A stretch of DNA of 64,000 nt from Clostridia bacterium (GTDB lineage: Bacteria; Bacillota; Clostridia; Christensenellales; CAG-138). A program made the position numbers and the translations under genes. Position 1 is the first letter of the stretch, and each line of letters begins with the position of its first letter. Of the stretch, positions 1 through 25,532 are shown piece by piece. The notes under the pieces are model-generated. The model saw nothing but the letters and a program-made list of their open reading frames with translations, searched no databases and was not told the origin of the DNA. The stretch is from NCBI GenBank assembly GCA_030526425.1, contig JAUNCT010000005.1, positions 5,930-69,929 on the forward strand, given 5' to 3'.

Positions 1-1761
1 CGAGATGGTGAAGTCCTCGCCGTACTTCTTGTCGACATACTTGACGCTGATGGTGACGCCGAGCTTGTCGATGGAGCGGAGGAGGTCCTCACGGAAAGTC
101 TCGCCGTTGAAGAAACGCGGTGCGCCGTTGACGGACACGGAGTCGATGACGGACAGACCGCTGATGGTCACGTTGTAATACAGCGCGTTGCTGGTGAGCG
201 GGTCGGTGAAGCTGAAGGTGATTTCGTTGTTGTTGGTGCCGAACGCCAGCTTCTTGTTCTGCGTCCACTTGATGCGCTCATGACCCCAATCGGTCGCGGC
301 GGCGATGTCGGTGCCGGCCTTCTGACCGGTAATGGCGCTGGTGCGGTAGGTGACGGTGTAGGTGAGACCGGGCATTTCAACGGGATCGAAGATCTCGCCG
401 GCGTAGTTTTTGGTTACGGTGCCTTCGACCTTGAACTCCTGAATGGGTTCGAGAACGGTCACGGGAGCGGTCTTGACGACATAATCCTTTCCGGTCTTGG
501 GGTCACTGTAACGGAAGGTGTAGACCTGCTCACCGGCTTTGTTGAAGTTCTTGGTGGCGGGCTCCATCGTGCACACATCGAAGTAGTAGTTGCCGTCGGC
601 ATCCTTTTCGCTGCCGGCGAACTCGACTTTGAACACGGGCTTGTCGCTGCTGTCGCGCATCGGATCGCCGACGAGGATGTCACCGGAGACCGTGAGCGTT
701 GCGGTCAGCTCGGGAAGAGCTTCGACTTCGACGGTGAACGATTTGCTGATGGCGGTGGCGTTTGCGGAATCCTGATAGGTCACCGTAACGGCGATGGAGC
801 CGTCGGTCGTGAACTCCGTGGGGGACACAGTGCAGTCGGCGGTAACGTCTTTTTCACTGCCGTCCGCAAAGGTCGCGGTCGCGGTGAACTGGGGCTTGTC
901 GCCAACGTACGCATCGGTCTTGGTGGCGCTCAGCGTGAGGTTCGTGCACTTGTCCACAACGGCTGCGGTGAAGCTTTCGGTCAGGGTCACGCCGTCTTCT
1001 TCATAAGCGACGTTGACGACCTGATTGCCGAGGGAGGTGTAAAAATCGGGAGTGAAGGTGCAACGCTCGGTGATGTCCTGATCGGCGCGGCCGTCGGCGT
1101 ACTGCGCGGTGACGCGGATGCCTTCGTTGGTCGCATCGTCGATGTATGCTTCATCGGGCGCGCCTTCGACAACGAGAGCCGAAAGGCTGGCTGCGACGTT
1201 GACGTCGACCGTGCAGGTCTTCGTCGTACCGCCGAGCTCAAACGAAGCGGTGATGCTTACCGTACCGGCGCCGGAGAAGGTCTGATCGCCGTATTCCGGA
1301 ACGACCTCGATGTTCTTGCCGTCGACTTCCGCGAAGAAGCGGACGCCGGCAAGCGCTTCGGAAGCGGTGTGTCCGGTGTAGCCGGTCACGGCGGCGATGT
1401 CCGAAGTGAGCGCGGTGAGCTTACCGGTGAAGGAGATGGGAAGATCGACGACTTCGGTGTACTTCGGAGTCTCGGTCAGGGTCTCGACCGTGGCTTTCAC
1501 CGTCTGGGTGGCCTCGATCATGCCATCGGGCAAGGTGAGGGTCTCGTTGGACAGCGTGGTCGTGGTGGCGACCTTCGTGCCGTCCTTCGTGAGGGTGATG
1601 ACCAGGTCCGAAGTGGCTACGGTGTCACCGGCCTTCCAGACCTTTGCGGGGTCCGCGAGGCTGACGGACAGATCGTAAACCGGATCGTCGGCCAGGGCGA
1701 TCGCCGGCACCAGTGCCAATACGAGCACGAATGCCAGCAGGAGTGTGGTGATGCGTTTCAT
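1..1761 (-). CDS. Large secreted surface protein with tandem bacterial Ig-like repeats (partial, runs off window start)
   Basis: Read manually on the minus strand: RBS AAAGGA, then ATG at 1761. MKRITTLLLAFVLVLALVPAIALA is a signal peptide, followed by Thr/Val-rich beta-strand repeats (VTAQYADGRADQDIT, TATATFADGSEKDVTADCTVSP). Open to position 1, so it is missing from the ORF track. Confidence 0.8.
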   Translation of the reverse strand, partial: MKRITTLLLAFVLVLALVPAIALADDPVYDLSVSLADPAKVWKAGDTVATSDLVITLTKDGTKVATTTTLSNETLTLPDGMIEATQTVKATVETLTETPKYTEVVDLPISFTGKLTALTSDIAAVTGYTGHTASEALAGVRFFAEVDGKNIEVVPEYGDQTFSGAGTVSITASFELGGTTKTCTVDVNVAASLSALVVEGAPDEAYIDDATNEGIRVTAQYADGRADQDITERCTFTPDFYTSLGNQVVNVAYEEDGVTLTESFTAAVVDKCTNLTLSATKTDAYVGDKPQFTATATFADGSEKDVTADCTVSPTEFTTDGSIAVTVTYQDSANATAISKSFTVEVEALPELTATLTVSGDILVGDPMRDSSDKPVFKVEFAGSEKDADGNYYFDVCTMEPATKNFNKAGEQVYTFRYSDPKTGKDYVVKTAPVTVLEPIQEFKVEGTVTKNYAGEIFDPVEMPGLTYTVTYRTSAITGQKAGTDIAAATDWGHERIKWTQNKKLAFGTNNNEITFSFTDPLTSNALYYNVTISGLSVIDSVSVNGAPRFFNGETFREDLLRSIDKLGVTISVKYVDKKYGEDFTIS

Positions 1762-2031
1762 AACAAAACATCCTTTCTGCAACGATATTATGCCCCACCC
1801 ATACAGATAGAACATAATAGATTACTTTGAGTATAGCATTTCGCGGGAATGAAAAAAGTTAAGAAATTGTGTACAAACCGTACATAATTTATGAACGGTG
1901 GCGCCGAAAAACAAATATAGTGGGGCAGGTGCGAAACCACCACAAAATAGCGACTTTCCATTCACGGAATATTCACAGAACCGGGGCGGTACACTGTCCC
2001 TTGTGCGGGTGGGTATGCTATACTTGTTATC

Positions 2032-3798
2032 ATGAGAAAGTATGCGTTTTCCGCCCGGTTTCGCCGGGCGCTTGTTGCCGCCTGCGCGGCATCGGTCCTT
2101 TTCGGGCTCTCCGTTGCCTTTGCGGCGGAAAAGCCCGTGACCACACCGCGTCCGACTGCGGTGCCCTCGTTGTACGATACGCTCCCCGCGCCGTGCGATG
2201 TGCTCGTCGTGCTCGCGCATCCGGGGGATGAGACCCTGTTTTTCCCGGGGCTGCTCGGCACGCTTGCCGGCGGGCGCGGGCTCGATGTGCGTGTGCTGTA
2301 TCTTTCCTGCGCTTCGGAAGAGCTGCGCGCCTTCGCAGAGGAGACGCTTGCCGCCTCCGGCGTGACGAACCCGCCCGAATTCTGGAACCTCGGCGGGATC
2401 TATTACGAAACACGACAGCATGCGGCGAACAACTGCGGCGGGGTCGACAAGCTCATCCGCAACATGACGGACCTGATCCGCTATTACCGCCCGAAGTACG
2501 TCGTGACGCACGACCCCGAAGGGGAATACGGGCACGGGCTGCATGTGCTCGCTTCCGAGATCGTGACCCGCGCGTGCGCGAATTCGCATTCGCCCAAAAA
2601 GCTCGCCAATTCGGTCAAGACCTACGGCATCCACGCACCGGAGTATATTTATTATCATACCGCGGAGCCCGAAGGCGCCGTCGTTCTCGATCTCAACGAG
2701 CATCTGACGGAAACGACCCTGCGCGACGCGAACGCCGCCCGGTACGATGTGCTGCGCCCCCTGCTGCCGATCGGCATCGACATCACACGCGATGCTTACA
2801 CACAGCCGCTGTTCCGCGCCGAAGCCGCGCCCGGTTCCTCCGGAACGGACGCGGGGCTGTTTTCGGAAAACGATCCTTCGGTGCCGCGCACCGAATACCG
2901 CGCACCCGAGGTCGTCGAGGGGGATTACTGCGGTGTGTTCTCCGAAACGGAGAGTGCTGCGGCAAGACCCGAAGAGGGTTTTTGGGAATACCGCAGCCCG
3001 AACCTTGCGGTGACCGTCGAACACAGGGAATTCAAAACCGACGAGGGGCAAGATGTTGCATATAACGTTGCGCACATCTTCACGCAGAACGAAGACGCGT
3101 TCGTGCCGGGCATCCGCGAAACGAAGGCGCATGAATACCCGTGGTTCATGGCGCGCCGTTACAAGGCGGTGCTCGCGATCACCGGCGACAACATGACGGT
3201 CGCCGAGGGCAAATACAAGGGCATCATCATCCGCGACGGAGAAGTATTCAACGACCGCGCCGGGGCGGATACCCTTGTAATGGGGGCGGACGGCTCGCTG
3301 CGCATCCTCCCCGCGGGAGAACAGACGGCGGAGCAGCTGCTGGCAGAGGGCGTGCGGAACACGTTCTCGTTCGGTCCGACGCTGATCGCGAACGGCAGGA
3401 TACAACATGAGCAGCTGCACACGTCGAAGGTGCAGCGCAAAAACCCGCGCGTCGCCATCGGCATGGTCGAACCCGGGCATCTCGTCGTCATTCAAGTCGA
3501 CGGACGCCAACGGGGGTACAGCCTGGGCGTGACGCTCGAAATGCTTGCCGCCATGTTCTGGGCGGAAGGCTGCACCGAAGCGTACAACCTCGACGGCGGC
3601 AGATCCGCCGCGCTCGTGTTCATGGGCGAACACATCAACCGGCATGCGGGCAACAGCGCGGATATCCAGCGCGCCCTGCCGGACGCGCTGATGTGGGGGC
3701 GTTCCGACCTGGTGCCTGGACCTTATGAACCCGTGTACAACATCGGCAACGGTCCGAGAAAAGAACCCTATCTCGAAAAGGAGCCCGCGGTGAAATGA
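2032..3798 (+). CDS. Secreted fusion: PIG-L/LmbE-type deacetylase + phosphodiester glycosidase (NAGPA) domain
   Basis: Signal peptide; LAHPGDE and VVTHDPEGEYGHGLH (PIG-L metal motifs); C-terminal NPRVAIG...VDGRQ...AYNLDGGRS (NAGPA). Confidence 0.85.
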   Translation: MRKYAFSARFRRALVAACAASVLFGLSVAFAAEKPVTTPRPTAVPSLYDTLPAPCDVLVVLAHPGDETLFFPGLLGTLAGGRGLDVRVLYLSCASEELRAFAEETLAASGVTNPPEFWNLGGIYYETRQHAANNCGGVDKLIRNMTDLIRYYRPKYVVTHDPEGEYGHGLHVLASEIVTRACANSHSPKKLANSVKTYGIHAPEYIYYHTAEPEGAVVLDLNEHLTETTLRDANAARYDVLRPLLPIGIDITRDAYTQPLFRAEAAPGSSGTDAGLFSENDPSVPRTEYRAPEVVEGDYCGVFSETESAAARPEEGFWEYRSPNLAVTVEHREFKTDEGQDVAYNVAHIFTQNEDAFVPGIRETKAHEYPWFMARRYKAVLAITGDNMTVAEGKYKGIIIRDGEVFNDRAGADTLVMGADGSLRILPAGEQTAEQLLAEGVRNTFSFGPTLIANGRIQHEQLHTSKVQRKNPRVAIGMVEPGHLVVIQVDGRQRGYSLGVTLEMLAAMFWAEGCTEAYNLDGGRSAALVFMGEHINRHAGNSADIQRALPDALMWGRSDLVPGPYEPVYNIGNGPRKEPYLEKEPAVK

Positions 3799-4655
3799 AA
3801 CGGTTATTGCGCACGATCCTCTGCGCCGCTTTGCTTGCGGCGTTCGTCGTGTCCGCGGTTGCGGAGGAGACCGCGGTCTTTTTCGGCGCCGAGGTCCCGC
3901 GGGATGCGGAGGTGCTGACGCTCGACGGCGTCGCTCTGTCGGATACGGAATTCGCCGCGCTCCCCGAAACGGTCGCCGCGTTCCCGAACCTCAAGACGCT
4001 GGAACTCCTGCATACGGGCAGAACGAACGAAGAACTGGCGGAGCTGAATGAAAAGCTCGGCAACGTCCGCGTGGTGTGGACGGTGAAGATGGGCAAGCTT
4101 TGGGAGCTCCGCACGGATGAAAAATATTTTTCCACGAAGCACTCCAGCCAAAAGCGGCACGAGAAGACCCGCCTGAAAACGGAGGACATCCAAGTCCTGC
4201 AATACTGCACGGATCTCGAGGCGCTGGATCTCGGGCACCATTCCATCACGGATATCTCGGTGCTCGCGAACCTCAAAAAGCTGCGCATCCTCATCTGCAT
4301 CGACAACCGCGTCAGCGACCTTTCGCCGCTGGCGGAACTGCCGGAGCTCGAATATCTCGAGCTGTTCCTGCTGCGGGTGACGGACCTTTCGCCGCTGGCG
4401 GACCATCCGAAGCTCAAACATCTGAACCTCGCGCACAACCGGCTGAAGAACAGCGACCTTTCGCCGCTGTACACGCTGACCGGGCTCGAACGGCTTTGGA
4501 TCAACAGCTGCGGGTTGACCAAGCAACAGCAGCAGGACCTGAAGACCGCGTTGCCGGATACGCGTATGGAATTCAAAGAATACGATTCCACGGGCGCGGG
4601 CTGGCGGACGGGTGAGGTCTATCAAAACCTGCGAGAGATATTCCAATACGGTTGA
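3795..4655 (+). CDS. Secreted leucine-rich repeat (internalin-like) protein
   Basis: Signal peptide; LRR units LEALDLGHHSITDISVLANLKKL, NRVSDLSPLAELPEL; ATGA overlap with upstream gene. Confidence 0.85.
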   Translation: MKRLLRTILCAALLAAFVVSAVAEETAVFFGAEVPRDAEVLTLDGVALSDTEFAALPETVAAFPNLKTLELLHTGRTNEELAELNEKLGNVRVVWTVKMGKLWELRTDEKYFSTKHSSQKRHEKTRLKTEDIQVLQYCTDLEALDLGHHSITDISVLANLKKLRILICIDNRVSDLSPLAELPELEYLELFLLRVTDLSPLADHPKLKHLNLAHNRLKNSDLSPLYTLTGLERLWINSCGLTKQQQQDLKTALPDTRMEFKEYDSTGAGWRTGEVYQNLREIFQYG

Positions 4656-4669
4656 GGAAAGGAAAGCCG

Positions 4670-6655
4670 ATGAAACGCAAAACGATCCGAACGATCGCTA
4701 TGATGACGGCACTGGGGTGCTGTTCCTGCCCTGTGCTCGCAACCGACGGCGCAACGTCTGAGGTGCCGGGAAAGGTGCCCGCGGGCGTACAGGTCGCCGA
4801 AGAGTACACGCATCTGTTGCCGCGCCTCGGCGACGATGCGATCGCCACCCGCGTTACGATGAAAGCGGGCAAGGGCATCACCGTTTCCCGGAACGAGGGT
4901 GATGACGTGCGGGGCGTATACATCACCTGGTACAGCGCGCCGGCACAGCTGACGGTCGTGCGCAAAGGGGCGGACGGGAAGCCGCTGAAGAAGGAACGCA
5001 TCGCCGGGGAGAGCCACCGGCAGTACTTCGAAATGGGACAGGACTGCACCGAACTGCAGATCTCCTCGCAAAAGGGGGAATACACCCCCGCCGAGGTGCG
5101 TGTGATCCATGCCGGGGAGACCGTGCCGTTTTCGGGAACGGAGGCGGATGTGCTCGTATTCGTGCCGGCACCCGGTGACGAGTACACGCTTTACGGCGGG
5201 CTGCTGCCGCGCTTGGTCAAAAACGGATACCGCGTACAGCTCGTATACATGGAAAAAGGCGACCGCCAAACCGAGGAGGAGTCGCTTAAGGCGCTCGAAC
5301 GGCTCGGTGTCGATGTGATGCCGGTCTTTTGGGGGCTGTCCGCGCCGCGCAACGCGGATACCGCCGCACAGGCGAAGGCATGGAAGCTCGAACTCAAAAA
5401 GCGTTCCGCCGCGAAACTCATCGAGACCGTCGCGCCGAAGCTCGTCATCGCCCCGTCGGACGCGGAGGGGAGCGGTTTGCCGCTCGGTGCGTGCGCTGCG
5501 GGCAGCATCGCCGCCGAGGGGACGGAGAAGGCGAACCTTGCGGAAAAGCCCGCGCTGTATCTCGCCGGCACCGCGGGGACTGCAACGATCGACTGGACGG
5601 CGGATGATGCGCACGATACCGCGGAGAGCCTGTACGCATCCTTCGATACGCAGTGGATCTACCACCGAGCGCTGCCCGAAACGCTTTCTTTTGCGGACGG
5701 TGCGGACCTTTCGCCGTTCAAAGCCGGCACCCCGGCACCCGTGACGCATGAGCAAACGGAGCCGGAAGGCGCGGAAAACGGAGACGACCTGTGGTTCCGC
5801 CGCGCGGGGGAACCCGCGGAGGTCGTGGAGGCGGACGTGGAGAAGGGTGTGTGGAGCTACCGATCGGATACGCTTTCCGTCACGGTGGAACGGCACGAAG
5901 AACCCGAAACGCCGCTGGTATGGCATGTCGCGCACATCCGCATGCGCGAACGCAACAGTTTCCGCAGCGTCATCGCGGCGGATATCGGCAAGCAGCCGCG
6001 CCTCCGCGCGTGGCGCATGGCGCGCAAGCAGAAGGCGGTGCTGCTGATTACGGGGGACAACCTCACCACGAGCGAAACGCCGGTCAAGGGCATGCTCATC
6101 CGCAACGACCGGTTCTACGCCGACCGCGGCTATGAAGACAGTATGTATTTCGACGACGGGCTCGGCATGACGATCATCCCGCGGAAGACGCTCGACGGGA
6201 TGGAAACGCTCGAAGGCGGTATCCGCGATGTGTACTCCTTCGGACCCGTTCTCGTCGAAGACGGCGAGATCCAATGGGAAAAGATCGAGCGGCACCGCGT
6301 GGCGAACAACGGAAACCCGCGCTGCGGCGTCGGTATGGTGGAGCCCGGGCATCTCGTGGCGATCGTCGTCGACGGGCGCCAAAAGGAATTCAGCGAGGGC
6401 GTGGACCTGCGCCGCTTCGCCCGGATGTTTCTCGACGAGGGCTGCAGCCTCGCGTATAATCTCGACGGCGGCGGTTCGACCGCGATGGTCTTCATGGGGG
6501 AGAATCTCAACCAACACGGCGGGCAGAGCTGGGACAAGCAGCGCTTCCTGCCCGAGGCGCTGATGTGGGGCTATTCGGAACTCGTGCCGACGGAGGACGA
6601 ACCCGTGTCGAACATCGGCAACGGGTGGGGGAACCTCAAGGACATCAAGGCCTGA
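4670..6655 (+). CDS. Secreted fusion: degenerate PIG-L-like domain + NAGPA domain (paralog of 2032-3798)
   Basis: RBS GAAAGGAAAG and ATG at 4670; VPAPGDEY replaces HPxDE; C-terminal NPRCGVG...VDGRQ...AYNLDGGGS. Confidence 0.8.
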   Translation: MKRKTIRTIAMMTALGCCSCPVLATDGATSEVPGKVPAGVQVAEEYTHLLPRLGDDAIATRVTMKAGKGITVSRNEGDDVRGVYITWYSAPAQLTVVRKGADGKPLKKERIAGESHRQYFEMGQDCTELQISSQKGEYTPAEVRVIHAGETVPFSGTEADVLVFVPAPGDEYTLYGGLLPRLVKNGYRVQLVYMEKGDRQTEEESLKALERLGVDVMPVFWGLSAPRNADTAAQAKAWKLELKKRSAAKLIETVAPKLVIAPSDAEGSGLPLGACAAGSIAAEGTEKANLAEKPALYLAGTAGTATIDWTADDAHDTAESLYASFDTQWIYHRALPETLSFADGADLSPFKAGTPAPVTHEQTEPEGAENGDDLWFRRAGEPAEVVEADVEKGVWSYRSDTLSVTVERHEEPETPLVWHVAHIRMRERNSFRSVIAADIGKQPRLRAWRMARKQKAVLLITGDNLTTSETPVKGMLIRNDRFYADRGYEDSMYFDDGLGMTIIPRKTLDGMETLEGGIRDVYSFGPVLVEDGEIQWEKIERHRVANNGNPRCGVGMVEPGHLVAIVVDGRQKEFSEGVDLRRFARMFLDEGCSLAYNLDGGGSTAMVFMGENLNQHGGQSWDKQRFLPEALMWGYSELVPTEDEPVSNIGNGWGNLKDIKA

Positions 6656-6691: not shown

Positions 6692-6726
6692 AAAAAAGAA
6701 CCGGTCCGAATCGGACCGGTTCTTTT
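6692..6726. terminator. Bidirectional intrinsic terminator
   Basis: AAAAAAGAACCGGTCCG-AAT-CGGACCGGTTCTTTT between convergent genes. Confidence 0.8.
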
Positions 6727-7361: not shown

Positions 7362-8000
7362 ATGGATCTCGGACTGATGAAACAGTTGGCGCACGCGATC
7401 ACCGCGCAGTTCGGCTCGAACTGCGAAGTCGTGGTACACGACCTGAAGAATGCGGATTCCGAGCACACCATCGTTGCCATCGAAAACGGGCATGTTTCCC
7501 AGCGCGAGCTCGGAGACGGTCCCAGCAGGGTGGTCCTCGAAGCGTTGCAGCACAAAGGGGAAGAGTGCCCCGATGATATGTGCGCTTACATCTCCAAGAC
7601 CTCCGACGGGCGCATCCTCAAGTCCACTACCGTCTACATGAAGGACGAAAACGGCGCGCCGGAGGGTGTGTTCTCCATCAATTACGACATCACCGAGTTG
7701 CTGATGGCGGACCGTGCGGTCACCTCGCTGCTCAACCACAAGCAGCAGGAGGAAGACCGGCCCGACCCCGTGATCCCGCGGAGCGTCAACGACCTGCTCG
7801 ACGACCTGATCGAACAGAGCGTGAAAATGATTGGCAAGCCCGTTGCCATGATGACCAAGAACGACAAGATCGAGGCGATCCACTTCCTCAACGAGGCGGG
7901 CGCTTTCCTGGTCACCAAAAGCGGAGACAAGGTCTCCAAGTATTTCGGCATTTCCAAGTACACGCTGTATTCCTACATCGACGCCAAGAAGGAAAACTGA
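7362..8000 (+). CDS. YheO-like PAS + HTH transcriptional regulator
   Basis: FGSNCEVVVHDL...IENGHVSQRELGD; C-terminal GAFLVTKSGDKVSKYFGISKYTLYSY. Confidence 0.9.
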   Translation: MDLGLMKQLAHAITAQFGSNCEVVVHDLKNADSEHTIVAIENGHVSQRELGDGPSRVVLEALQHKGEECPDDMCAYISKTSDGRILKSTTVYMKDENGAPEGVFSINYDITELLMADRAVTSLLNHKQQEEDRPDPVIPRSVNDLLDDLIEQSVKMIGKPVAMMTKNDKIEAIHFLNEAGAFLVTKSGDKVSKYFGISKYTLYSYIDAKKEN

Positions 8001-8094
8001 GGAAGCAAACCGGACGGTCCCTCGTTCGGTTTCTCGATAAAACAAAAAGACACCGCACTTCACGACAAATACAAAGAAAGGATCTTCAAGCATT

Positions 8095-9486
8095 ATGGAA
8101 ACCTCCAGAATCGAAGCGGTCAAGCAGGCCGCGCAGGCGTATCTGCCCGCAATGTCCAAGTTCCTCCGCGACCTGATCGCGATCCCCAGCGAGAGCTGTG
8201 AGGAAGAGGGCGTTATCAAGCGCACCATCGAGGAAATGAAAGCGCTCGGTTATGACGAGGCGTTCATCGATCCCGAGGGCAACGCGCTCGGTTACATGGG
8301 CACCGGCGACAAGATCATCGCGTTCGACGGTCATATCGACACCGTCGGTATCGGCAACATCGAGAACTGGACCGAAGATCCCTATCAGGGTTGGGAAAAG
8401 GACGGCATCATCTACGGCCGCGGCGGTTCCGACCAGGAAGGCGGCGTCGTCTCCGCTGTTTACGGCGCGAAGATCATGAAGGATCTCGACCTCATTCCCG
8501 AAGGCTACAAGATCCTCGTCACCGCGACCGTTCAGGAAGAAGACTGCGACGGTCTGTGCTGGCAGTACATCCACAATGAAGACGGCATCACGCCCGAATT
8601 CGTCGTTTCCACCGAGCCCACCGACGGCGGTATCTACCGCGGTCACCGCGGCCGTATGGAGATCCGCGTCGACGTTCACGGTGTTTCCTGCCACGGCAGC
8701 GCGCCGGAGCGCGGTGACAACGCGATCCACAAGATGGCCGAGATCATCGAAAACGTCCGCGACCTCAACGAGAACCCCGCAGACGACTCCGTCGAGATCA
8801 AGGGTCTCGTGAAGATGCTCGATCCGAAGTACAACCCCGAGCATTATGAAGATGCCCGCTTCCTCGGCCGCGGCACCTGCACCACCAGCCAGATCTTCTA
8901 CACCAGCCCGAGCCGCTGCGCTGTTGCGGACAGCTGCTCCATCTCCATCGACCGCCGTATGACCGCGGGCGAGACCTGGGATTCCTGCCTGAAGGAGATC
9001 GAGGATCTGCCGGCTTGCAAGAAGTACGCGAAGGACGTCAAGGTCTCCATGTACATGTACGACCGTCCCGCTTGGACCGGCCTGAAGTACGAAACCGAGT
9101 GCTACTTCCCGACCTGGATCAACAAGGAGACCGCACCGCACGTACAGGCTCTCGCAGATGCGCACAAGGCGCTCTTCGGCGAGAAGCGTATCGGCAAGCG
9201 CGAGGATATGCCCGAAAAGGCGAAGATCAAGCGCGATGAGCCCCTCATCGACAAGTGGACCTTCTCGACCAACGGCGTTTCCATCCAGGGCCGCTACGGC
9301 ATCCCCTGCGTCGGCTTCGGTCCCGGTGCGGAGAGCCAGGCACACGCTCCGAACGAGATCATCTGGGCACAGGACCTCGCGACCTGCGCTGCTGTTTACG
9401 CGCTGACCCCGTCCATGTACAAGGGCAAGGGCGAAGAGGATGTCTGCCAGTTCCGTGCCGGCAAGACCAACAACGACATCAAATAA
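8095..9486 (+). CDS. ygeY: YgeY family M20 metallo-hydrolase
   Basis: [53 protein letters not shown] motifs. Confidence 0.9.
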
Positions 9487-9508
9487 TTTTCAAGGGAGAT
9501 AAAAACCA

Positions 9509-13496: not shown

Positions 13497-13586
13497 ACGG
13501 GCGTACCTCCCATGGGATAATTTGTTATTATTATAAAGGGACGGGGCTTTTTTTTCAACCGCACGCACCGGAAGCGAAAAAAAGAC

Positions 13587-13615
13587 TTGAAATCCCGTGG
13601 GACGCAAGGTATAAT
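13587..13615 (+). promoter_or_regulatory. Sigma-A promoter of tRNA-Val
   Basis: TTGAAA-17nt-TATAAT just upstream of the tRNA. Confidence 0.75.
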
Positions 13616-17103: not shown

Positions 17104-19242
17104 ATGGAAAAACCGAAGAAACAACGGAAGGAGCAAACGCTCTGCCGTTTGGACGATGAGATATTCGAGGAGATCATGCCCGAAAAGGATCTCGGAAAGC
17201 CGGAAGATCACCGGATCTACGAGGACTTCGGGGGAGGAAAAAAGCGCGGCGGCAACCCCTTGGAACGGGTGGCGCTGATCGTCAGTATCCTGCTTGCGGT
17301 GCTGATCCTTGCGATCGGCGCGGTCTATCTGGTCTACAACACCGGAAAAACGCCGGAAGCGCATTTCGCGACCCCTGTCCCGACGGCGGTGCCCGCGGTG
17401 ACACCGGAACCCCTGCCGGAGATATCGGCGGCTCCGGTAACCGACGAGACGGTGCCGGAACCCGCGGAGGAGCCCGTGGAAGAGACCGATGAGGCGGATG
17501 AGTATACGGAGCTGCGCGAGCAGGCGGATCTTTCCATGCTCGATGAAGGGATCGTGAACATCCTGCTCATGGGCGTGGATTATGCGGAAGAACGCGAACA
17601 CTGGAGCGGTAAGGACGGACTGAAAGCCGCCCATTCCGACGTGATGATCGTGCTGGCGGTCAATTTCAAGGAAAACCGCGCGGATCTCATCTCGCTCCCG
17701 CGGGATACCTATGTCAACTACATCCCCGGGGTGCGCGGCACCTACAAGCTGAACGCGGCGATCAACTGCGGCGGGGGACTCACCGCCGCGAATGGCGCGG
17801 GCTTCGAAAAGGTCTGCAAAACGGCAGAGGTCCTGCTCGGCGGGATCCCGGTCAACTACTACTATGCGGTCACGATGCCCGCGGTCAAACAGCTGGTCGA
17901 CCTCATCGGCGGTGTGGACTACGACCTTGAGGTCTCCTTCAAGATACAGGGACGCAGCTACCGCGAGGGATATCAGCATATGGACGGTCAGGCGGTGCTC
18001 GACTATTTGCGCGTGCGCAAAAGCGGAACGGGACTTTTGAAGTCCGAACAGGGCGACGCGAACCGCGTCAACCGCCAGAAGAAGATGCTTGTGGCGATCT
18101 TCGACAAGATCAAGCGGGCGGGTCTGCTCGAGTCGGTCCCGACGCTGCTGAAGACCTTCTCCGGACAGCTGTATACGAACTGCGACGTGGAGCAGACGGC
18201 GGCGCTGGCGCTTGCCGCACTCAACATGCCGAAGGAGAACATCGGCATGTACTCGATGAGCGGTTCGTCGAAAAACATTTGGACGTGGAATTTCACGTTC
18301 ACCAACATGGCGAACCGCCGCTCGATCATCAAAAAGATCTACGGTGTGGACGTGCCGGATATCCGCGACTGCACGAAGGAATACGCCGCAACGCAATACT
18401 ATATCGCACTGGCGGAGCAATACCTCGATACTTGCGGACCGCTGACCCGTTATCTTGACGACGCGATCGAAGAGGACGACCGGCTGCCGCAGTTCACCGA
18501 GACGCCCGCGCCGACACCGACGCCGAAGCCGACGGAAAGCCCTGTGACGCCGACACCCGTGCCGGATTCGACGGATGCTCCCGCGGAACCGACACAGATA
18601 CCCGTGGAAACGCCGGAACCGGAACCCACAGGCAAGCCCGCGGAAGAAACCCCCGGACCGACGGCGGAACCCACCGCGGAACCGACGAAGGCACCGACTG
18701 CGGAACCGACCGATGCGCCTACCGATGCTCCCACGCCGGAGCCGACGGAAGCGCCGACGCCGAAGCCGACCGATGCTCCCACGCCGGAGCCGACAGCGGC
18801 ACCGGCGCCGAAACCGACGGAAGCGCCCGAGCCGGAGCCGGAGGAACCGGCGAACCGGGAGGAGACGAAGGACGGTGTGGCGGAAACCGTTGCGGAGGCG
18901 GCATACGGGCTGCGGGAACTGCGGTTCGCACCCGCGCATCCGTTCGCGCGCTTTGCCGCGACCCGTCAATACGGCGCGGATGCCCGCGCACTGTATGAAA
19001 AATACAAGGCGGCATACGATGCGCTCGAAACCGCGCTGTCCCGTGCAAAGCGGCAGAGCAGCAACTTCAAAGCGCACAAAACGAATTCCATGGCGGGTAT
19101 CGACGCCGACCTTGCGGATGCCTGCGACGAGCTGAAGACCGCGGCGGAAAAGGCCGCTGCGGCCTTCGGTTACGGCAAAAAACTGAATTGGAACCTGACG
19201 CCGCTTGCGGACAGAAATTCCATTTGGGTCGATTTCCGATGA
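17104..19242 (+). CDS. LCP (LytR-CpsA-Psr) glycopolymer ligase with long Pro/Thr/Glu linker
   Basis: TM anchor; NILLMGVD, HSDVMI, SLPRDTYV, KLNAA, LDYLRVR, D..RVNRQ motifs. Confidence 0.9.
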   Translation: MEKPKKQRKEQTLCRLDDEIFEEIMPEKDLGKPEDHRIYEDFGGGKKRGGNPLERVALIVSILLAVLILAIGAVYLVYNTGKTPEAHFATPVPTAVPAVTPEPLPEISAAPVTDETVPEPAEEPVEETDEADEYTELREQADLSMLDEGIVNILLMGVDYAEEREHWSGKDGLKAAHSDVMIVLAVNFKENRADLISLPRDTYVNYIPGVRGTYKLNAAINCGGGLTAANGAGFEKVCKTAEVLLGGIPVNYYYAVTMPAVKQLVDLIGGVDYDLEVSFKIQGRSYREGYQHMDGQAVLDYLRVRKSGTGLLKSEQGDANRVNRQKKMLVAIFDKIKRAGLLESVPTLLKTFSGQLYTNCDVEQTAALALAALNMPKENIGMYSMSGSSKNIWTWNFTFTNMANRRSIIKKIYGVDVPDIRDCTKEYAATQYYIALAEQYLDTCGPLTRYLDDAIEEDDRLPQFTETPAPTPTPKPTESPVTPTPVPDSTDAPAEPTQIPVETPEPEPTGKPAEETPGPTAEPTAEPTKAPTAEPTDAPTDAPTPEPTEAPTPKPTDAPTPEPTAAPAPKPTEAPEPEPEEPANREETKDGVAETVAEAAYGLRELRFAPAHPFARFAATRQYGADARALYEKYKAAYDALETALSRAKRQSSNFKAHKTNSMAGIDADLADACDELKTAAEKAAAAFGYGKKLNWNLTPLADRNSIWVDFR
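18495..18850 (+). repeat. Coding tandem repeats (PTxxPTPE linker) inside the LCP gene
   Basis: Recurrent CCGACCGATGCTCCCACGCCGGAGCCGAC-like units. Confidence 0.8.
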
Positions 19243-19285
19243 AACAACAAACAAAGCAGACGTATTTCGGTACGTCTGCTTTGTT

Positions 19286-19999
19286 TCATTTTGTTGATTC
19301 GCTGTTTTGCGAGGGGGTATCGGTCAGTGCTCGGATGACTTCCGCATATTCGGTCAGTGCGGCGGTGCCCACAGAGGAAACGGCGTAACGCCCCTTGGCG
19401 GTGTGCGAGAACCATCCGTAATGGTTCAGGTACAGAATGTTCGTCGCGCGGGCAACGCCCGAAGCGTTGCGGATCTCCGCAGTCGCCGCTTCGCCGCCGA
19501 GCTCCGCAAGGGCGTGCAGTACGAGCAGGGCTTCTTCGCGGTAAGCGGTGAGCAGTTTCGTTTTGTTGACACCGCCGGTGTTGGTTTTGAGGCGGCGCTG
19601 CCGGAGTTCTTCCGCAAGGGCGTCGCGCTGCGCTTTGTTGCGCGCCTGAAAAGCGGAAAGCTCCCCGGGAACGGGGTCGAGCACGACTTCCGCGCGTCCT
19701 GTGCGTTTCGAAACGACGATCAGCCCGATCCCAAGGCGCTTGAGCAGGTATTGCTTGTCCTTGCCGCTGCGGCTGTACAGATCCCGCGGACGGGGAACGG
19801 CGATGTAAACGAAATCCGCGATCTTCTGACGGAGCGCCGCTTGTTGTACAACGCGGAAATTCAGGGATTCCTTCAGTTCGACGGCGATGCGGACATCGTT
19901 TTTTTCGAGCACGAGGTCGATGCCGCCGACCTCGCCGTCGCCCCGGTATCCCGTTTCCTCGAACAAAGCTTTGACGGCGGGGAACAGTTCCTTTTCCAT
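19286..19999 (-). CDS. DUF2161 family putative PD-(D/E)xK phosphodiesterase
   Basis: EKELFPAVK...GEV..IDLV...VELK; TAYREEAL; NHYGWF motifs. Confidence 0.85.
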   Translation of the reverse strand: MEKELFPAVKALFEETGYRGDGEVGGIDLVLEKNDVRIAVELKESLNFRVVQQAALRQKIADFVYIAVPRPRDLYSRSGKDKQYLLKRLGIGLIVVSKRTGRAEVVLDPVPGELSAFQARNKAQRDALAEELRQRRLKTNTGGVNKTKLLTAYREEALLVLHALAELGGEAATAEIRNASGVARATNILYLNHYGWFSHTAKGRYAVSSVGTAALTEYAEVIRALTDTPSQNSESTK

Positions 20000-21098: not shown

Positions 21099-22586
21099 AT
21101 GAAACAGAATGCGACCAAATGGATCATCATAATGCTGTCGGTCCTGCTTGCGGCGATCCTCGCGATGGCAGGCTTTTTGGCGTGGCGTTACCGGCGGGAC
21201 GTGCGGCTTGCAGTGGAGGCGGCCGCGCGCGCGGCGGACCCGTATATCCGCCCGGACGGCATCTACGACCTGAAGAATGCGGACCTGTCGGATGCGCGCC
21301 TGTTCGACATCGCGGATGCCCGTTCCGTCGATCTGAGCGGAAGAGAGATCGACCCCGGTGCGATCGAAGCGATCTGCGGCAAGAACCCCGGCGCGGAGAT
21401 CCTTTGGGATGTGCCGTTCGCGGGGGAGCGCATCCCGAATACGGCGGAAACGCTGTATATTTCCGACTTCGGCGCGGAAACGAAGAAAGCCTTGGGTTAC
21501 TTCACGAAGCTCCGCACGCTGAACGCCGTTGCGGTGCCCGAATACCGGGCGGTCATGGAATATGCGGAAACGCACCCCGAACTTGAGGTGGTGTACGGCG
21601 TTCCGCTGTTCGGGAAGACCGTTCTTTCCACGGAGCAATGGCTCGATCTGACCGGCGTCGGCGCGGCGGATTTCGATGCGGATGAACTGCTCGAAGCGCT
21701 GGAGGCGCTGCCCGGGGTGACGGATGTCGACCTGGTCGGCATGGAATTGGATGATGCGACGAAGCTGGCACTCAAAGCCGCGCATCCCGGGATCCGTTGG
21801 TACTGGTTCGTGAACGCCGGCGGAAAGCGGTTCGAAAGCACGGCGAAGAAGCTCGATTTCACCGATTGCGATTTTGCTTCCTTCGATGCGTTTCTGGATG
21901 TGGTCCGCCTGATGAACACGCCGGAATACGTCGATGTTGCGACGCAGGGCTTCGAAAGCGTTCAGATGGAAAAAGCGTGCGCGGAGTTTCCGGATACGGT
22001 GTTCGCGTGGACGCTACGCATCGGCAAGTATTTCGTGCGTACCGATGCACAGGTCATCGACCTCGGCTATGAATCGGGCGACCGCGCGTTGCGCAACGCC
22101 GATATCGTGCCGCTCAAGTATTGCAGCCGGCTGGAGGCGCTCAGCCTCAACAACCAGAGCATTTCGGATCTGACGCCGCTTGCGGGGCTGACGAAGCTCA
22201 GAGTTCTGTGTCTCGGCGCGAACAAGATCTCGGACCTGCGTCCGCTGGCAAACCTGAAGAAGCTGCAATATCTGAACCTCACCTCGAACAAGGTGTGCGA
22301 CCTTGCGCCGCTTGCGGGGCTGAGCGAATTGACCGACCTGAACGTGATGGACAACGACGTGACGGATCTTTCTCCCCTGTTCGGAATGAAAAAGATGCGG
22401 CACCTGTATGTCGGCGGTAACGATGGGCTCACGCCCGGCGCTTCGGACCGTGCGGCGGAAGCACTCGGCGCAAACGCGCAGGTCAATGCGAGTGCGAAGG
22501 GCAACTGGAAGAACAATCCCGTCCGCGATACCGTGGACGACATCTTCGTTTCCCGTTCGATGCGCACGCTGTACCCCGAAGGATAA
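21099..22586 (+). CDS. Membrane-anchored leucine-rich repeat protein
   Basis: N-terminal TM; LRRs NQSISDLTPLAGLTKLRVL etc.; VRTDA...DIVPLKYC motif shared with the other two LRR proteins. Confidence 0.85.
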   Translation: MKQNATKWIIIMLSVLLAAILAMAGFLAWRYRRDVRLAVEAAARAADPYIRPDGIYDLKNADLSDARLFDIADARSVDLSGREIDPGAIEAICGKNPGAEILWDVPFAGERIPNTAETLYISDFGAETKKALGYFTKLRTLNAVAVPEYRAVMEYAETHPELEVVYGVPLFGKTVLSTEQWLDLTGVGAADFDADELLEALEALPGVTDVDLVGMELDDATKLALKAAHPGIRWYWFVNAGGKRFESTAKKLDFTDCDFASFDAFLDVVRLMNTPEYVDVATQGFESVQMEKACAEFPDTVFAWTLRIGKYFVRTDAQVIDLGYESGDRALRNADIVPLKYCSRLEALSLNNQSISDLTPLAGLTKLRVLCLGANKISDLRPLANLKKLQYLNLTSNKVCDLAPLAGLSELTDLNVMDNDVTDLSPLFGMKKMRHLYVGGNDGLTPGASDRAAEALGANAQVNASAKGNWKNNPVRDTVDDIFVSRSMRTLYPEG

Positions 22587-22598
22587 GAGAGGAAACCA

Positions 22599-23417
22599 AT
22601 GGACAGAAGAGATATCTGCGTATTCGATTCCGGCATGGGCGGGCTGACCTGTATCCGTCAGCTGACGGAACTGCTACCGAACGAGACGCTGCGCTATTTC
22701 GGCGACACGGGGCGTGTTCCTTACGGCAACCGCTCCGCGGAGATCCTGTTGCAGTACGCACGGCAGGACGTCGCATTTTTGAAAACCTTTTCCCCGAAGG
22801 CGATCGTCATCGCGTGCGGAACGGTCTCGACGACTTGTCTGGACCTGCTTCGCGCGGAGAACAAGGGCGTGCCCGTGCTCGGCGTGGTCGGTCCCGCGTC
22901 CGAGAAGGCGGCGAAGGTCAGCAAAAACGGGCGCATCGGCGTGGTCGGGACCCGGGCGACGATCCGCACCGGCGCATACGAAAAGGCGATCCGCAGGCTC
23001 CGTCCCGAGGCGGTGTTCGAGAGCAAGCACTGTCCGCTGCTCGTTCCGCTCGTGGAGGACGGGCGCGTCACGGAAAAGGATACCGTCACGAAGCTGATGA
23101 TCCGGGAGTACTTCGCCCCGATGAAGCGGGCGGAGGTCGACACCATCGTGCTCGGCTGTACGCACTACCCGTTGCTGACGGAGCTGATCCGTGAAGAGAT
23201 GGGACCGGACGTGACGCTGATCGACACCGGACGCGAGGTCGCGCTCGCGCTGAAACAGCTTCTCGAACAGAAGGACGCGCTGACGGACAGCGCGGAAGAG
23301 GGGAACCGGTATTACTACGCGAGCGATTCCGCAACGGATTTCGCATCGCTCGCATCGGTGTTCCTCGGCTGCAATATCGAAGGCAGTGTCGAACGGATCG
23401 ATATCGGCAAATATTGA
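22599..23417 (+). CDS. murI: Glutamate racemase
   Basis: FDSGMGGL, VPYG, IACGT, LGCTHYP. Confidence 0.95.
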   Translation: MDRRDICVFDSGMGGLTCIRQLTELLPNETLRYFGDTGRVPYGNRSAEILLQYARQDVAFLKTFSPKAIVIACGTVSTTCLDLLRAENKGVPVLGVVGPASEKAAKVSKNGRIGVVGTRATIRTGAYEKAIRRLRPEAVFESKHCPLLVPLVEDGRVTEKDTVTKLMIREYFAPMKRAEVDTIVLGCTHYPLLTELIREEMGPDVTLIDTGREVALALKQLLEQKDALTDSAEEGNRYYYASDSATDFASLASVFLGCNIEGSVERIDIGKY

Positions 23418-23503
23418 TCTGCCCGCAGCAGGACGGAGGGAGTCCGCGGTGAAGCGCGGTGAACTCCGGCAGCAGGCAGAAGAAACGGATAAAGGAGAAA
23501 AAG

Positions 23504-24154: not shown

Positions 24155-24200
24155 GCTGCGGCAACAAGAAAAGGACGGGCGCGGAGCCCGTCCTTTTTGC

Positions 24201-25532
24201 TTACAAAACGCACAGCCCTTCCGGAACGGCGCGCTCGCGTTCGGAATGATCCGAAGGATCCCGGTCGGAGACGCGGAGCGCACGCCCTTCCCGGGTCAGG
24301 ATCTGCGCCGAACCGCCGCCGTCGAGGTTGACCCCGCAGACGACGCCGAGTTTCGCGGCGATCGATGCCACTTCGGAAAGGGAGGCGCCACGGCTTTCGG
24401 TTTCGGGGTCGTCCCCGAACTTCGGACGTCCCTCGAACCAGAGGAGAACGGGTTCTCCGCACTTGTCCGCGCCGAGAAGCATCCGCGGTGCGCGGTCTCT
24501 TTTATAGTCCAACGGGTAGAGGCTCGGCGGATACGAGGGACCGAACGGACGGCGGATATTCCAAAACGGGGAACGGAAGCCCAAAACAGGCACGCCGTTT
24601 TCCACCGCGGCGTTGCCGCATTGCACGCCGAACCGCACGTCTTCCAACCCGTGGTAGGAGACGCGGTCACCCGGGCGGATGCCCTCGGCGTCATCTGTGC
24701 GCAGAACGAAACCGGAGGAGGGGACGGGCGTTCCGCCGCCCTCCGTTACGGCAAGCACGGTGTCGTGTACGATGACCAGTTCGGTTCCCCGTCCCGGGGG
24801 CGTTTTCCGGCAGGAGGGGCGGCTGAAAAGGGCGGCGTTCTTGCCGGGGACGAATTCCTTTCCGGCTGCGGTCAGGGTCAAATCCGTGAGATCGGGTTTG
24901 GAGATGCGGATATCTCCGTTGTTCCGGACGAGCAACGCTTCCCTGCCGAACAGCGGCGGCGCAACGATCTTTCCGTTTTGCACGCGGAGACCCAGCGGGG
25001 TGCCGAGCCGGTCGAAGGCGGTCATGCAATCGATGCGGTCCATCGTGAAAAAGCCGAGATTGGCGCGGAGCCGGGCGGTTGTTTCGGACCTTGTCAGAAA
25101 ACCGAGCTCCGCACCGACGGGCAATATGACCGTCCCGGGACGGAGACCGGGGACGATCGCCGTGCAGCCGCGGCTTGCAAGCGTGTGCCACAGGGCTTCC
25201 GCAGCAGGGGAGGAGAAGCGCGGCGTCGCATGGTACAGGCGCATGCCGTACCGGAGGATCAGCGTCGCGCGGAGCAGCGGATCCGCGATCTCCATTCCGG
25301 GGACGTCCGGGACCCGGATATCCCGTGGCAAGCGGAAAAACGCGAGCTTCGCATACAGCCAGCGATACCGCGGGACGATGAAATCGCGGTACAGACCGGT
25401 GATCTGCGAGAATGCCTCCGCATCCGGTTCCGGTGAAAAAAAGCGCAACCGGTGCCAGTTGCCCGGCACGATGCGTTGTACCCGCGTAAAGCCGCCGCCC
25501 TGCATTTGAAAAGTACGGAGTTCCTGCTGCAT
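24201..25532 (-). CDS. Cytoplasmic NAGPA-domain protein
   Basis: RAPRMLLG...WFEGR...GASLSE...NLDGGGS; no signal peptide; RBS AGGGGG before ATG 25532. Confidence 0.72.
   Translation of the reverse strand: MQQELRTFQMQGGGFTRVQRIVPGNWHRLRFFSPEPDAEAFSQITGLYRDFIVPRYRWLYAKLAFFRLPRDIRVPDVPGMEIADPLLRATLILRYGMRLYHATPRFSSPAAEALWHTLASRGCTAIVPGLRPGTVILPVGAELGFLTRSETTARLRANLGFFTMDRIDCMTAFDRLGTPLGLRVQNGKIVAPPLFGREALLVRNNGDIRISKPDLTDLTLTAAGKEFVPGKNAALFSRPSCRKTPPGRGTELVIVHDTVLAVTEGGGTPVPSSGFVLRTDDAEGIRPGDRVSYHGLEDVRFGVQCGNAAVENGVPVLGFRSPFWNIRRPFGPSYPPSLYPLDYKRDRAPRMLLGADKCGEPVLLWFEGRPKFGDDPETESRGASLSEVASIAAKLGVVCGVNLDGGGSAQILTREGRALRVSDRDPSDHSERERAVPEGLCVL

Follow-up and report, generated by a model that had tools for sequence, protein, structure and literature searches.

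Three-component extracytoplasmic glycosylation is known from GtrA/GtrB/GtrC, CsbB/GtcA/YfhO and GacI/GacJ/GacK/GacL, in which a GT2 polyprenyl-phosphate-sugar synthase is accompanied by a GtrA-type module, an outside-acting protein comes last, and the presumed target is a wall glycopolymer. Another described group comprises the LCP (LytR-CpsA-Psr) ligases, such as TagTUV, Cps2A and LytR. Both polyprenyl-phosphate-sugars and the linkages made by LCP belong to the sugar-1-phosphodiesters, the class of bonds that NAGPA cuts at C1-O. Here, we analysed a stretch of 64,000 nucleotides (nt) of a Clostridia bacterium of the Christensenellales (assembly GCA_030526425.1, contig JAUNCT010000005.1, positions 5,930 to 69,929), hereafter called the window. 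Its first 25.5 kilobases (kb) contain a compact cassette in which the gene of a GT2-GtrA fusion protein is followed by the genes of a membrane-anchored NAGPA and of a small membrane protein, TM88. GT2-GtrA, anchored NAGPA and TM88, plus a divergent LCP gene in about half of the cassette loci, form a core that is a variant of wall-polymer modification systems of known kinds. In the literature on bacterial NAGPA that we searched, we found no description of a GT2-GtrA/NAGPA/TM88 cassette. Going by sequence, we see an about even chance that the cassette tailors a wall glycopolymer, with NAGPA and TM88 cleaving a sugar-1-phosphodiester outside the membrane.

The source genome (2.2 Mb in 58 contigs, 72%-complete) has a G+C content of ~60%, and genes were therefore picked by their third-position G+C. 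Proteins from the open reading frames (ORFs) supported in this way were scanned against Pfam and NCBIfam, with cut-offs of 25 bits for NAGPA (PF09992), 28.2 bits for PIG-L (PF02585) and 24.6 bits for LCP (PF03816). Export signals were judged by eye and with a hydropathy window. Genomes of relatives are labelled G (G000 being the source genome), contigs C, loci L and representative proteins P. The four core genes, with protein lengths in amino acids (aa), are:

15868-16878, minus strand: GT2-GtrA fusion, 336 aa (Glycos_transf_2 PF00535, 58.1 bits; GtrA_DPMS_TM PF04138, 49.3 bits)
14800-15867, minus strand: membrane-anchored NAGPA ('NAGPA_TM'), 355 aa (Pfam NAGPA, 97.7 bits)
14521-14787, minus strand: TM88, an 88-aa two-helix membrane hairpin with a basic C-terminal tail, no family
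17104-19242, plus strand: LCP ligase, 712 aa (LytR_cpsA_psr PF03816, 101.3 against 24.6 bits; TIGR00350, 83.9 against 62.3)

GT2-GtrA is the first gene of the cassette and has promoter-like sites upstream at 17008-16979 and 16971-16943 on the minus strand. Its stop codon abuts the ATG of anchored NAGPA, and a strong terminator-like hairpin (14509-14477) follows TM88. The LCP gene diverges from the GT2-GtrA cassette and is followed by a bidirectional terminator-like hairpin (19249-19286). No shared regulatory motif was found between LCP and GT2-GtrA, as the 23 orthologous intergenic regions share only promoter-like -35/-10 words. On its other side, the LCP gene is convergent with a DUF2161 gene (putative PD-(D/E)XK phosphodiesterase; 19286-19999, minus strand), which shares the bidirectional hairpin and was not seen adjoining LCP in the loci of relatives.

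Conservation of the core was assessed in a comparison set of 40 same-order relatives, 24 of them of the same family, and in two sets of loci. Set I comprised 18 loci of 17 same-order relatives, whose ORFs were compared with the window proteins, while set II comprised the best 80 of at least 603 relatives found with a single peptide pattern, with one genome per species. In set I, GT2-GtrA lay directly upstream of anchored NAGPA on the same strand in 13 loci, one of them in another family (G032), and within ~3 kb of NAGPA in four further loci (L018-L021). TM88 was detected downstream by blastp in 13 of the 18 loci, and nine had an adjacent LCP gene divergent from GT2-GtrA. In set II, a TM88 homologue was found directly downstream of NAGPA in 65 of the 80 loci and GT2-GtrA directly upstream in 41 (38 of the 70 with room upstream). 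The genes are tightly packed, with median gaps of -4 nt from GT2 to NAGPA and of ~17 nt from NAGPA to TM88. In the same-genus relative G002, a whole contig of 13.8 kb carries only TM88, NAGPA, GT2-GtrA and two LCP genes. Conserved synteny, a point raised by the initial annotation of this DNA, was thus found for NAGPA with GT2-GtrA (by gene order and by fusions), and often with LCP. It does not extend to the 25-kb block as a whole, the order of which is not shared by G002 or other relatives; none of the window's other envelope genes was found in the 18 loci of set I.

The hosts of set II are Christensenellales-type Clostridia (Clostridium sp. CAG:1024, CAG:138, Christensenella sp. UBA bins and Candidatus Pelethousia), some of them labelled Oscillospiraceae, together with two cultured Lachnospiraceae, Lachnotalea glycerini DSM 28816 and Konateibacter massiliensis. 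A FastTree tree of the 80 catalytic domains and two outgroups places the window inside a clade of 33 rows (support 98), in every one of which GT2-GtrA lies upstream. The linkage with GT2-GtrA recurs in at least four other clades, including the two Lachnospiraceae isolates. The state of this neighbour changes at least six times on the tree, against a mean of 23.9 changes in shuffles. Where LCP or GT2-GtrA is missing, the flanks consist of unrelated housekeeping genes, and the cassette is therefore portable and self-contained.

In two of the loci without GT2-GtrA, the divergent neighbour of NAGPA-TM88 encodes the undecaprenyl-diphosphate phosphatase BacA/UppP in L118 (4894-5706, minus strand) and MurB in L057 (4642-5622, minus strand); we take these as isolated hints of ties to the lipid carrier and to peptidoglycan synthesis. 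In one subclade, ten-helix membrane proteins of 470-500 aa without a Pfam family are encoded upstream of GT2-GtrA (immediately upstream at L058:2993-4402; also L059:294-1793), and could be an unrecognised transferase or flippase of the cassette there.

Further evidence for the coupling of GT2-GtrA with NAGPA comes from natural fusions. In L061, where the DNA is free of N, GT2-GtrA and NAGPA form a single ORF of 705 aa. In G023, they form a single ORF of 700 aa that faces LCP and is followed, with a 4-nt overlap, by TM88 and then by a gene for a leucine-rich repeat (LRR) protein. Two more were found among the 14 long proteins that were scanned from the best 150: P0074 (719 aa) unites GT2-GtrA with NAGPA and P0143 (983 aa) unites GtrA with NAGPA. 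The topology of these fusions is consistent, as the fourth helix of GtrA ends inside the cell, where the NAGPA anchor starts.

TM88 had not been mentioned in the initial annotation. All 32 matches to its profile, distributed over 20 of the 41 genomes, lie by their coordinates directly behind a NAGPA match. By position, TM88 is the obligate downstream partner of the anchored type of NAGPA, to which it may bind. As a small membrane protein encoded in the operon it is comparable to GacJ, and to Rv3632 for PpgS. Yet TM88 follows NAGPA even where GT2-GtrA is missing, and is therefore better seen as a partner of NAGPA than of the synthase. Searches with TM88 gave nothing significant in Pfam (E<=1), NCBIfam or the protein atlas, and no second copy was found in the source genome. 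Two residues, D23 and N26, are the same in all 24 orthologues compared, and both are located at the predicted outer end of helix 1; H7, M29 and F31 reach a conservation of 90% or more.

Anchored NAGPA starts with a short basic N-terminus, followed by one transmembrane (TM) helix, a Pro/Thr/Ala-rich linker and a predicted extracellular catalytic domain. Its AlphaFold2 model (mean pLDDT 84.7) has a helix at residues 9-37 and a disordered part at 55-97. In Foldseek, the top matches (probability 1.0) were vertebrate NAGPA, the 'uncovering enzyme' (6pku, 6pki, 6u11), and bacterial DUF2233 proteins (3ohg, 5h3k), with E-values of 1e-13 to 1e-12 and TM-scores by target of 0.58-0.68 for 6pku, 6pki, 6u11 and 3ohg. 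Like these proteins, cassette NAGPA has the alpha/beta fold with three subdomains, the PF09992 family, the Asp-Gly-Gly core and a membrane tether with a spacer, although sequence identity is only 18-21%. The tether itself differs: vertebrate NAGPA has a C-terminal EGF stalk, whereas cassette NAGPA has an N-terminal anchor with a Pro/Thr linker. Further differences from these proteins are the obligate membrane partner of 88 aa and the coupling or fusion of cassette NAGPA to a lipid-sugar synthase. Across 20 orthologues D321, G322, G323 and R343 are invariant and the motifs NPR, RNG, FGP and GYxEPGHY nearly so, and in 13 of the 20 the anchor ends in FHHVR.

PMC13474241 calls the DGGGS loop of human NAGPA 'invariant', gives its Asp as catalytic and reports that D286A abolishes activity, so that the Asp of the DGG loop is needed. 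In the window, Asp-Gly-Gly is retained in all four NAGPA domains, with DGGKT in anchored NAGPA, DGGRS and DGGGS in two secreted PIG-L-NAGPA fusions (A and B, see below) and DGGGS in a signal-less copy. The full DGGGS is thus found only in fusion B and the signal-less copy, and cassette NAGPA, with DGGx[T/S], departs from that loop. Our literature searches yielded no bacterial function assigned to NAGPA (DUF2233) proteins, and no study that ties bacterial NAGPA to LCP, GtrA or teichoic acids beyond speculation. Nor did they yield anything useful on the wall polymers of Christensenella.

GT2-GtrA consists of a GT2 catalytic domain, in which a DxD motif (DAD) can be read, and a four-helix membrane domain of the GtrA/DPMS type. 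The nearest NCBIfam models are PpgS (8e-18; 64.7 against a cut-off of 370 bits) and AglJ (8e-16; 58.2 against 325), both polyprenyl- or dolichyl-phosphate sugar synthases, and the protein stays below both equivalog cut-offs; no sequence match was found in the PDB. These features suggest that GT2-GtrA is probably a polyprenyl-phosphate-(amino)sugar synthase. The cassette resembles the Gtr, CsbB and Gac systems in having such a synthase with a GtrA-type module, an outside-acting protein at the end and a wall glycopolymer as its presumed target. It differs from them in that GtrA is fused to GT2 and in that no GT-C transferase was found in the window cassette, where NAGPA and TM88 take that place.

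The LCP protein has a TM anchor (hydrophobic from residues 50-64 onward), an LCP domain, a Pro/Thr linker and a helical C-terminal domain. In its anchor and in a LytR_cpsA_psr domain that exceeds the Pfam and TIGR00350 cut-offs, it is like TagTUV, Cps2A and LytR. It is unlike them in the additional Pro/Thr linker and C-terminal domain of ~110 aa, and it remains under every NCBIfam equivalog cut-off.

Around this core, the first 25.5 kb hold all the families that the initial annotation had named from the letters alone, i.e., four NAGPA domains, PIG-L fusions, a glycoside hydrolase of family 3 (GH3), GT2-GtrA, LCP, murI and three LRR proteins, as the ORFs and the Pfam and NCBIfam matches confirm. 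The features outside the core are:

2032-3798, plus strand: secreted PIG-L-NAGPA fusion A, 588 aa (NAGPA, 103.9 bits; PIG-L, 41.1 bits), signal-peptide-like N-terminus
3795-4655, plus strand: secreted LRR protein A (LRR_A), 286 aa (LRR_4, 62.5 bits)
4652-6655, plus strand: exported PIG-L-NAGPA fusion B, 667 aa (NAGPA, 84.2 bits; PIG-L, 30.5 bits), signal-peptide-like N-terminus
12183-13607, minus strand: TM-anchored NagZ-type GH3 protein (Glyco_hydro_3 PF00933, 238.8 bits)
10847-12190, minus strand: LRR lipoprotein B (LRR_B), 447 aa (LRR_4, 71.7 bits; lipobox LLIGC)
21099-22586, plus strand: TM-anchored LRR protein C (LRR_C), 495 aa (LRR_4, 65.6 bits), directly upstream of murI
22599-23417, plus strand: glutamate racemase MurI (TIGR00067, 207.2 against 146.65 bits)
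24201-25604, minus strand: signal-less protein with a partial NAGPA domain, 467 aa (59.7 bits, profile positions 59-168; DGGGS kept)
1-1815, minus strand: exported repeat protein, N-terminal 605 aa of ~1195 aa, running beyond the window, no Pfam family

The density of NAGPA genes is not explained by their frequency in the genome, an issue that the initial annotation had raised for the families of the region. NAGPA exceeds its cut-off in four window proteins (103.9, 84.2, 97.7 and 59.7 bits), which are four of the seven matches in the genome. Only 29 of 200,000 random placements on the contigs put at least four of seven points within 25,532 bases (P = 1.45e-4). The same 25.5 kb hold three of the genome's four LRR_4 proteins, two of its six PIG-L matches, one of four LCP matches and one of two GtrA matches. 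Recent tandem duplication was considered as a cause of the clustering and ruled out, because the NAGPA paralogues are just 30-40% identical (34% between fusions A and B, ~30% between anchored NAGPA and the fusions).

The 25.5 kb are not one system but at least five transcription units. Terminator-like hairpins lie 3' of TM88, LRR_B, fusion B and LCP and promoter-like sites 5' of GT2-GtrA and fusion A, and unrelated genes stand between the units: DUF1292, a YheO-type regulator, an M20 peptidase, an OTCase-like gene, DUF1294, DUF2161 and two HAD hydrolases. This bears out the view of the initial annotation that the region is a neighbourhood rather than one operon. Its further idea of one system of convergent chemistry fares less evenly, in that the set is non-random and coherent, with envelope functions outside the membrane, and yet is split into separate units and includes murI. 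In the same region, the YheO-type PAS-HTH regulator, the M20 peptidase and the OTCase-like carbamoyltransferase are co-directional between the envelope modules (7362-10711, plus strand) and resemble a separate small metabolic operon. Further along the window, G+C drops to 0.47-0.48 at 40000-46000, compared to ~0.60 elsewhere. This part is probably a foreign or mobile island. It encodes a serine resolvase (40573-41220), a double-zinc-ribbon protein of the SPFH/band-7 type (41274-42509) and a protein of 421 aa whose single, weak TPR match stays below the cut-off (42957-44222).

Fusion A, LRR_A and fusion B form one operon, as LRR_A overlaps both flanking genes by 4 nt, and a terminator-like hairpin (6694-6726) follows fusion B. 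The AlphaFold2 model of fusion A (mean pLDDT 74.5) shows two domains (56-270 and 305-560) separated by a disordered part (279-300). Members of the PIG-L/LmbE (CE14) family such as MshB carry the motifs AHPDDE and HxDH, which provide the zinc ligands and the general-base Asp. Aligned to MshB (4ewl, 1q74), fusion A has AHPGDE for AHPDDE and GHGLH for GHPDH, with the three residues that align with the zinc ligands kept. Fusion B has PAPGDE and has lost the first zinc histidine, and the consensus of 13 fusion proteins is AHPGDE. The PIG-L domains of the window are like MshB in scoring above the Pfam cut-off and, in the model of fusion A, in a Rossmann-like domain, and unlike it in being exported, fused to NAGPA and degenerate in their motifs. 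We therefore did not file them as active deacetylases, and their role as de-N-acetylases in the initial annotation is doubtful.

Two further loci of the source genome contain relatives of these fusions. On contig C45 (L001, 2119-8468, minus strand), a second cassette comprises a calcineurin-like phosphoesterase (Metallophos), a PIG-L-NAGPA protein of 682 aa with DGGSS, an LRR protein of 317 aa, a stand-alone PIG-L protein of 411 aa that keeps an intact AHPDDE, and a GLUG-motif protein. On contig C21 (L002, 7369-10437), a protein of 1023 aa represents a third, longer member of the fusion family: its C-terminal domain is NAGPA, with DGGIS, and its middle gives a weak PIG-L match below the threshold.

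GH3 and LRR_B, which overlap by 8 nt, likewise form an operon, with a terminator-like hairpin at 10811-10786 after LRR_B. The GH3 protein is like NagZ/YbbD-type enzymes in its GH3 N-terminal domain and in its best NCBIfam model, the beta-N-acetylhexosaminidase PRK05337; its translation contains KHFPGHG...DSH, which we take to be the NagZ signature. It differs from these enzymes in its TM anchor, its Pro/Thr linker, its co-operonic LRR lipoprotein and a score of 168.9 bits, below the equivalog cut-off of 207.

LRR_A shares 36-38% identity with LRR_B and with the LRR protein on contig C45. An identity as internalins was considered for the LRR proteins and dropped, as their repeats alone match the internalin models, with 46-72 bits against cut-offs of 1050-1600 for the full length; we describe them as LRR_4 (PF12799) proteins. 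MurI is a cytoplasmic, housekeeping enzyme of peptidoglycan precursor synthesis and no physical part of a system outside the membrane. The signal-less NAGPA protein has neither a signal peptide nor a TM helix, and its orthologue occurs in only one of the 40 relatives (G010, 47% identity, on another contig). It is probably unrelated to the cassette, and both it and murI were rejected as parts of the outside system. The repeat protein at 1-1815 was described as an Ig-repeat surface protein in the initial annotation. It is indeed exported, but the atlas gives no more than a hint of Big_4/Big_3, with values of 0.85-0.89, under the atlas bar of 0.9, and hence an Ig-like fold is only a lead.

The accessory genes were traced in other genomes as well. 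A survey of 22 LRR genes from 18 loci of relatives found five beside PIG-L or PIG-L-NAGPA (four on the same strand, one divergent) and two beside GH3, one of which is a same-genus orthologue pair (GH3 then LRR, kept in G002). One lies directly before murI (G010), in the order LRR_C, MurI, HtpG, BirA, RluD as in the window, and the remaining LRR genes have unrelated or unknown neighbours. In L061, L071, L107 and G023 an LRR gene stands directly behind TM88. The initial annotation's association of LRR proteins with the enzymes therefore holds in that they recur beside PIG-L/NAGPA, and in these four loci directly behind the core, although co-location with the core is exceptional. Two of these loci (L071:3417-9647 and L107:3472-9714) begin the series with the gene of an exported CotH kinase that also carries LTD and Fn3-associated domains; NAGPA follows directly, then TM88, LRR and PIG-L, all co-directional.

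Orthologues of GH3 occur in 11 same-family genomes. In G014, GH3 adjoins a second NAGPA-TM88 pair in convergent orientation. Its distance to the core is 10 kb in G010 and 25 kb in G019, and no NAGPA match was found on the GH3 contig of the other genomes with an orthologue. Hence, the link of GH3 to the core is weak. By these results, PIG-L-NAGPA/LRR, GH3-LRR and LRR-murI are modules of their own, and in other genomes they recombine with the core. They form a loose guild, of which the window is an unusually dense instance. The best explanation for the 25.5 kb is a lineage-specific juxtaposition of units from one guild of envelope genes that recombine in varying pairs across Christensenellales.

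From the observed gene content, enrichment, synteny, fusions, fold and motif state, we infer the substrates, the direction of the reaction (hydrolysis or transfer), the physical complexes and the identity of the polymer as follows. LCP would fix a secondary wall glycopolymer to peptidoglycan. GT2-GtrA would load an (amino)sugar on polyprenyl-phosphate and bring it to the outer face of the membrane, and this lipid-linked sugar would decorate the LCP-fixed polymer outside the cell. At or near the outer membrane face, NAGPA and TM88 would cut the C1-O glycosidic bond of a sugar-1-phosphodiester, as the human enzyme does. The diester may be the lipid-linked sugar itself or a sugar-1-phosphate link within the polymer. 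Cleavage would pass on or remove the sugar and free the phosphate-bearing partner. Three sets of genes would be accessory, separately transcribed members of the guild, namely the secreted fusions of degenerate PIG-L with NAGPA plus their LRR partner, the NagZ-like GH3 and the LRR lipoprotein of its operon, and LRR_C-murI. Because of the operon position, the fusions and the absence of a co-located GT-C, we suggest that NAGPA-TM88 handles the product of GT2-GtrA or a derivative of it. A polymer-borne substrate is equally open, as YfhO and PMT_2 are encoded elsewhere, the linker is long and flexible, many loci lack GT2-GtrA, and LCP is a frequent neighbour. The initial annotation had proposed that the genes write and erase the GlcNAc-1-phosphate linkage made by LCP. 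This is chemically sensible but only partly supported, and the tight coupling to GT2-GtrA points at least equally to a lipid-linked sugar-1-phosphate.

Several observations weigh against the role that we propose for the cassette. The fourth position of the active-site loop is K, G, D, A, M, Q or N in the 20 orthologues of anchored NAGPA (DGGKT in the window), while PMC13474241 reports that G289A and S290A abolish the activity of human NAGPA. YfhO and PMT_2 genes are present on other contigs of the source genome. The notion of a genome without GT-C enzymes was accordingly rejected, and NAGPA need not touch the lipid-linked sugar, because YfhO and PMT_2 are its conventional users. The 40-residue disordered linker fits a substrate in the wall as well as one in the membrane. 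GT2-GtrA is absent beside NAGPA-TM88 in 31 of 74 scorable loci, and LCP is present in just 19 of the 80 loci of set II. No PIG-L or LRR genes were found within ~8 kb of the core in the 18 loci of set I. In set II, PIG-L-NAGPA or LRR genes lie at most 6 kb from the core in 9 of the 80 loci, which is roughly twice a crude chance expectation for loci that are not independent. Finally, both PIG-L domains lack residues that align with catalytic residues of MshB and are probably inactive or altered.

An alternative explanation might be that NAGPA and TM88 are the outside third component of a Gtr-like cassette. They would then take the sugar directly from the polyprenyl-phosphate-sugar that GT2-GtrA has made and flipped, and fill the role of a GT-C such as GtrC, YfhO or GacL, either by transfer to a wall acceptor through front-face (SNi-like) chemistry, as has been proposed for the human enzyme, or by hydrolysis that releases the carrier. 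We regard this as possible though rather unlikely. The tightly coupled genes place NAGPA-TM88 where gtrC stands behind gtrA and gtrB, and the four fused forms with their consistent topology, as well as the self-contained cassette amid changing flanks, fit the idea. Conserved polar residues also lie at the predicted outer membrane face (FHHVR of NAGPA; D23 and N26 of TM88). A crude screen of the 43 GT2-positive loci, restricted to ORFs of 400 aa or more that have seven or more hydrophobic segments, yielded a single recognisable GT-C (PMT_2, L080), along with two ten-helix proteins of no family. However, we know of no NAGPA-fold enzyme that uses a lipid donor or acts as a transferase. As inverting enzymes, GT2 synthases would be expected to produce a lipid sugar in beta linkage, whereas the substrate of NAGPA is alpha-GlcNAc-1-P. 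The many loci without an adjacent synthase and the GT-C candidates elsewhere in the source genome also speak against this explanation, and a membrane substrate would need no long flexible linker. That anchored NAGPA and TM88 would represent a kind of extracytoplasmic enzyme that acts on polyprenyl-phosphate-linked sugars in the place of a GT-C is, on the same sequence features, slightly more doubtful still.

Other explanations concern parts of the neighbourhood. The secreted PIG-L-NAGPA/LRR_A and GH3/LRR_B proteins might be foraging or antagonistic enzymes that strip GlcNAc or GlcNAc-phosphate from foreign glycans, such as host glycoproteins, yeast phosphomannan or the teichoic acids of other bacteria. 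They have signal peptides and no recognisable wall-binding domain, and their family is expanded in gut and rumen lineages (20 of the 24 genomes of the family have NAGPA, with 1-10 copies each). In the literature that we searched, bacterial NAGPA is mentioned only as a domain of surface proteins of the polymorphic, conflict type in Bacillota (bioRxiv 10.1101/2025.01.14.632903), as a domain fused to phosphoesterases of the ShfP type, and, by guess, as a prophage depolymerase (PMC9862828). Yet no sugar transporter or catabolic genes adjoin these genes in the window, where the neighbours are DUF1292, YheO, M20 and OTCase-like genes. Secreted members lie near the biosynthetic core (LCP, GT2-GtrA) in the nine loci of set II mentioned above, in line with it in L071, L107 and G023, and the anchored NAGPA-TM88 pair would be left unexplained, which makes foraging improbable. 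We find it equally hard to believe that, outside the four-gene core, the neighbourhood is a happenstance of common multi-copy envelope genes without a functional tie. The lack of a shared 25-kb order in relatives, the interspersed genes, the sporadic signal-less NAGPA and the several copies of LRR_4, likewise present in 20 of the 24 family members, would be in line with it. It conflicts with the random-placement result for NAGPA alone and with the finding that all four LRR_4 proteins of the genome adjoin, or lie at most 3 kb from, a NAGPA, GH3 or LCP gene. Pairs moreover recur in other genera, as seen for LRR with PIG-L-NAGPA, for GH3 with NAGPA-TM88 in G014 and for TM88 followed by LRR. Least probable is that the NAGPA ectodomain is mainly a ligand-binding sensor for wall sugar-phosphate with TM88 as its signalling partner. 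Such a role would suit the variable fourth loop position, and three of the 14 long relatives scanned (P0070, P0101 and P0103, one of them also with a VanW domain) are BlaR1-type Peptidase_M56 membrane sensors in which NAGPA, at the C-terminus, replaces the penicillin-sensing domain. In those lineages NAGPA may indeed be a wall-signal sensor. In the orthologues of the cassette protein, by contrast, the Asp, both Gly, NPR, RNG and other pocket motifs are invariant or nearly so, and no transcription factor is conserved beside NAGPA-TM88.

Bacterial NAGPA (DUF2233) proteins are very common, and the profile of the anchored subfamily alone matches 10,716 representative clusters at E<=1e-10. Within this abundance, our analysis defines a portable cassette of three or four genes with an obligate partner protein and natural fusions, which is present in two cultured Lachnospiraceae. 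For annotation, it follows that fused PIG-L domains should not be called deacetylases and that the DGGGS loop, called 'invariant' in PMC13474241, is not invariant in bacteria. If NAGPA-TM88 did act on lipid-linked sugars in the place of a GT-C, the fold of the uncovering enzyme would have had its first use in bacteria, on lipid-linked sugar-1-phosphates, and glycosylation outside the membrane would have a second route that does not depend on GT-C. More generally, the cassette may bear on the ways in which Gram-positive anaerobes of the gut cleave or transfer sugar-1-phosphate links outside the membrane, on whether the linkages made by LCP are reversible, and on the origin of the 'uncovering' enzyme of the animal mannose-6-phosphate pathway.

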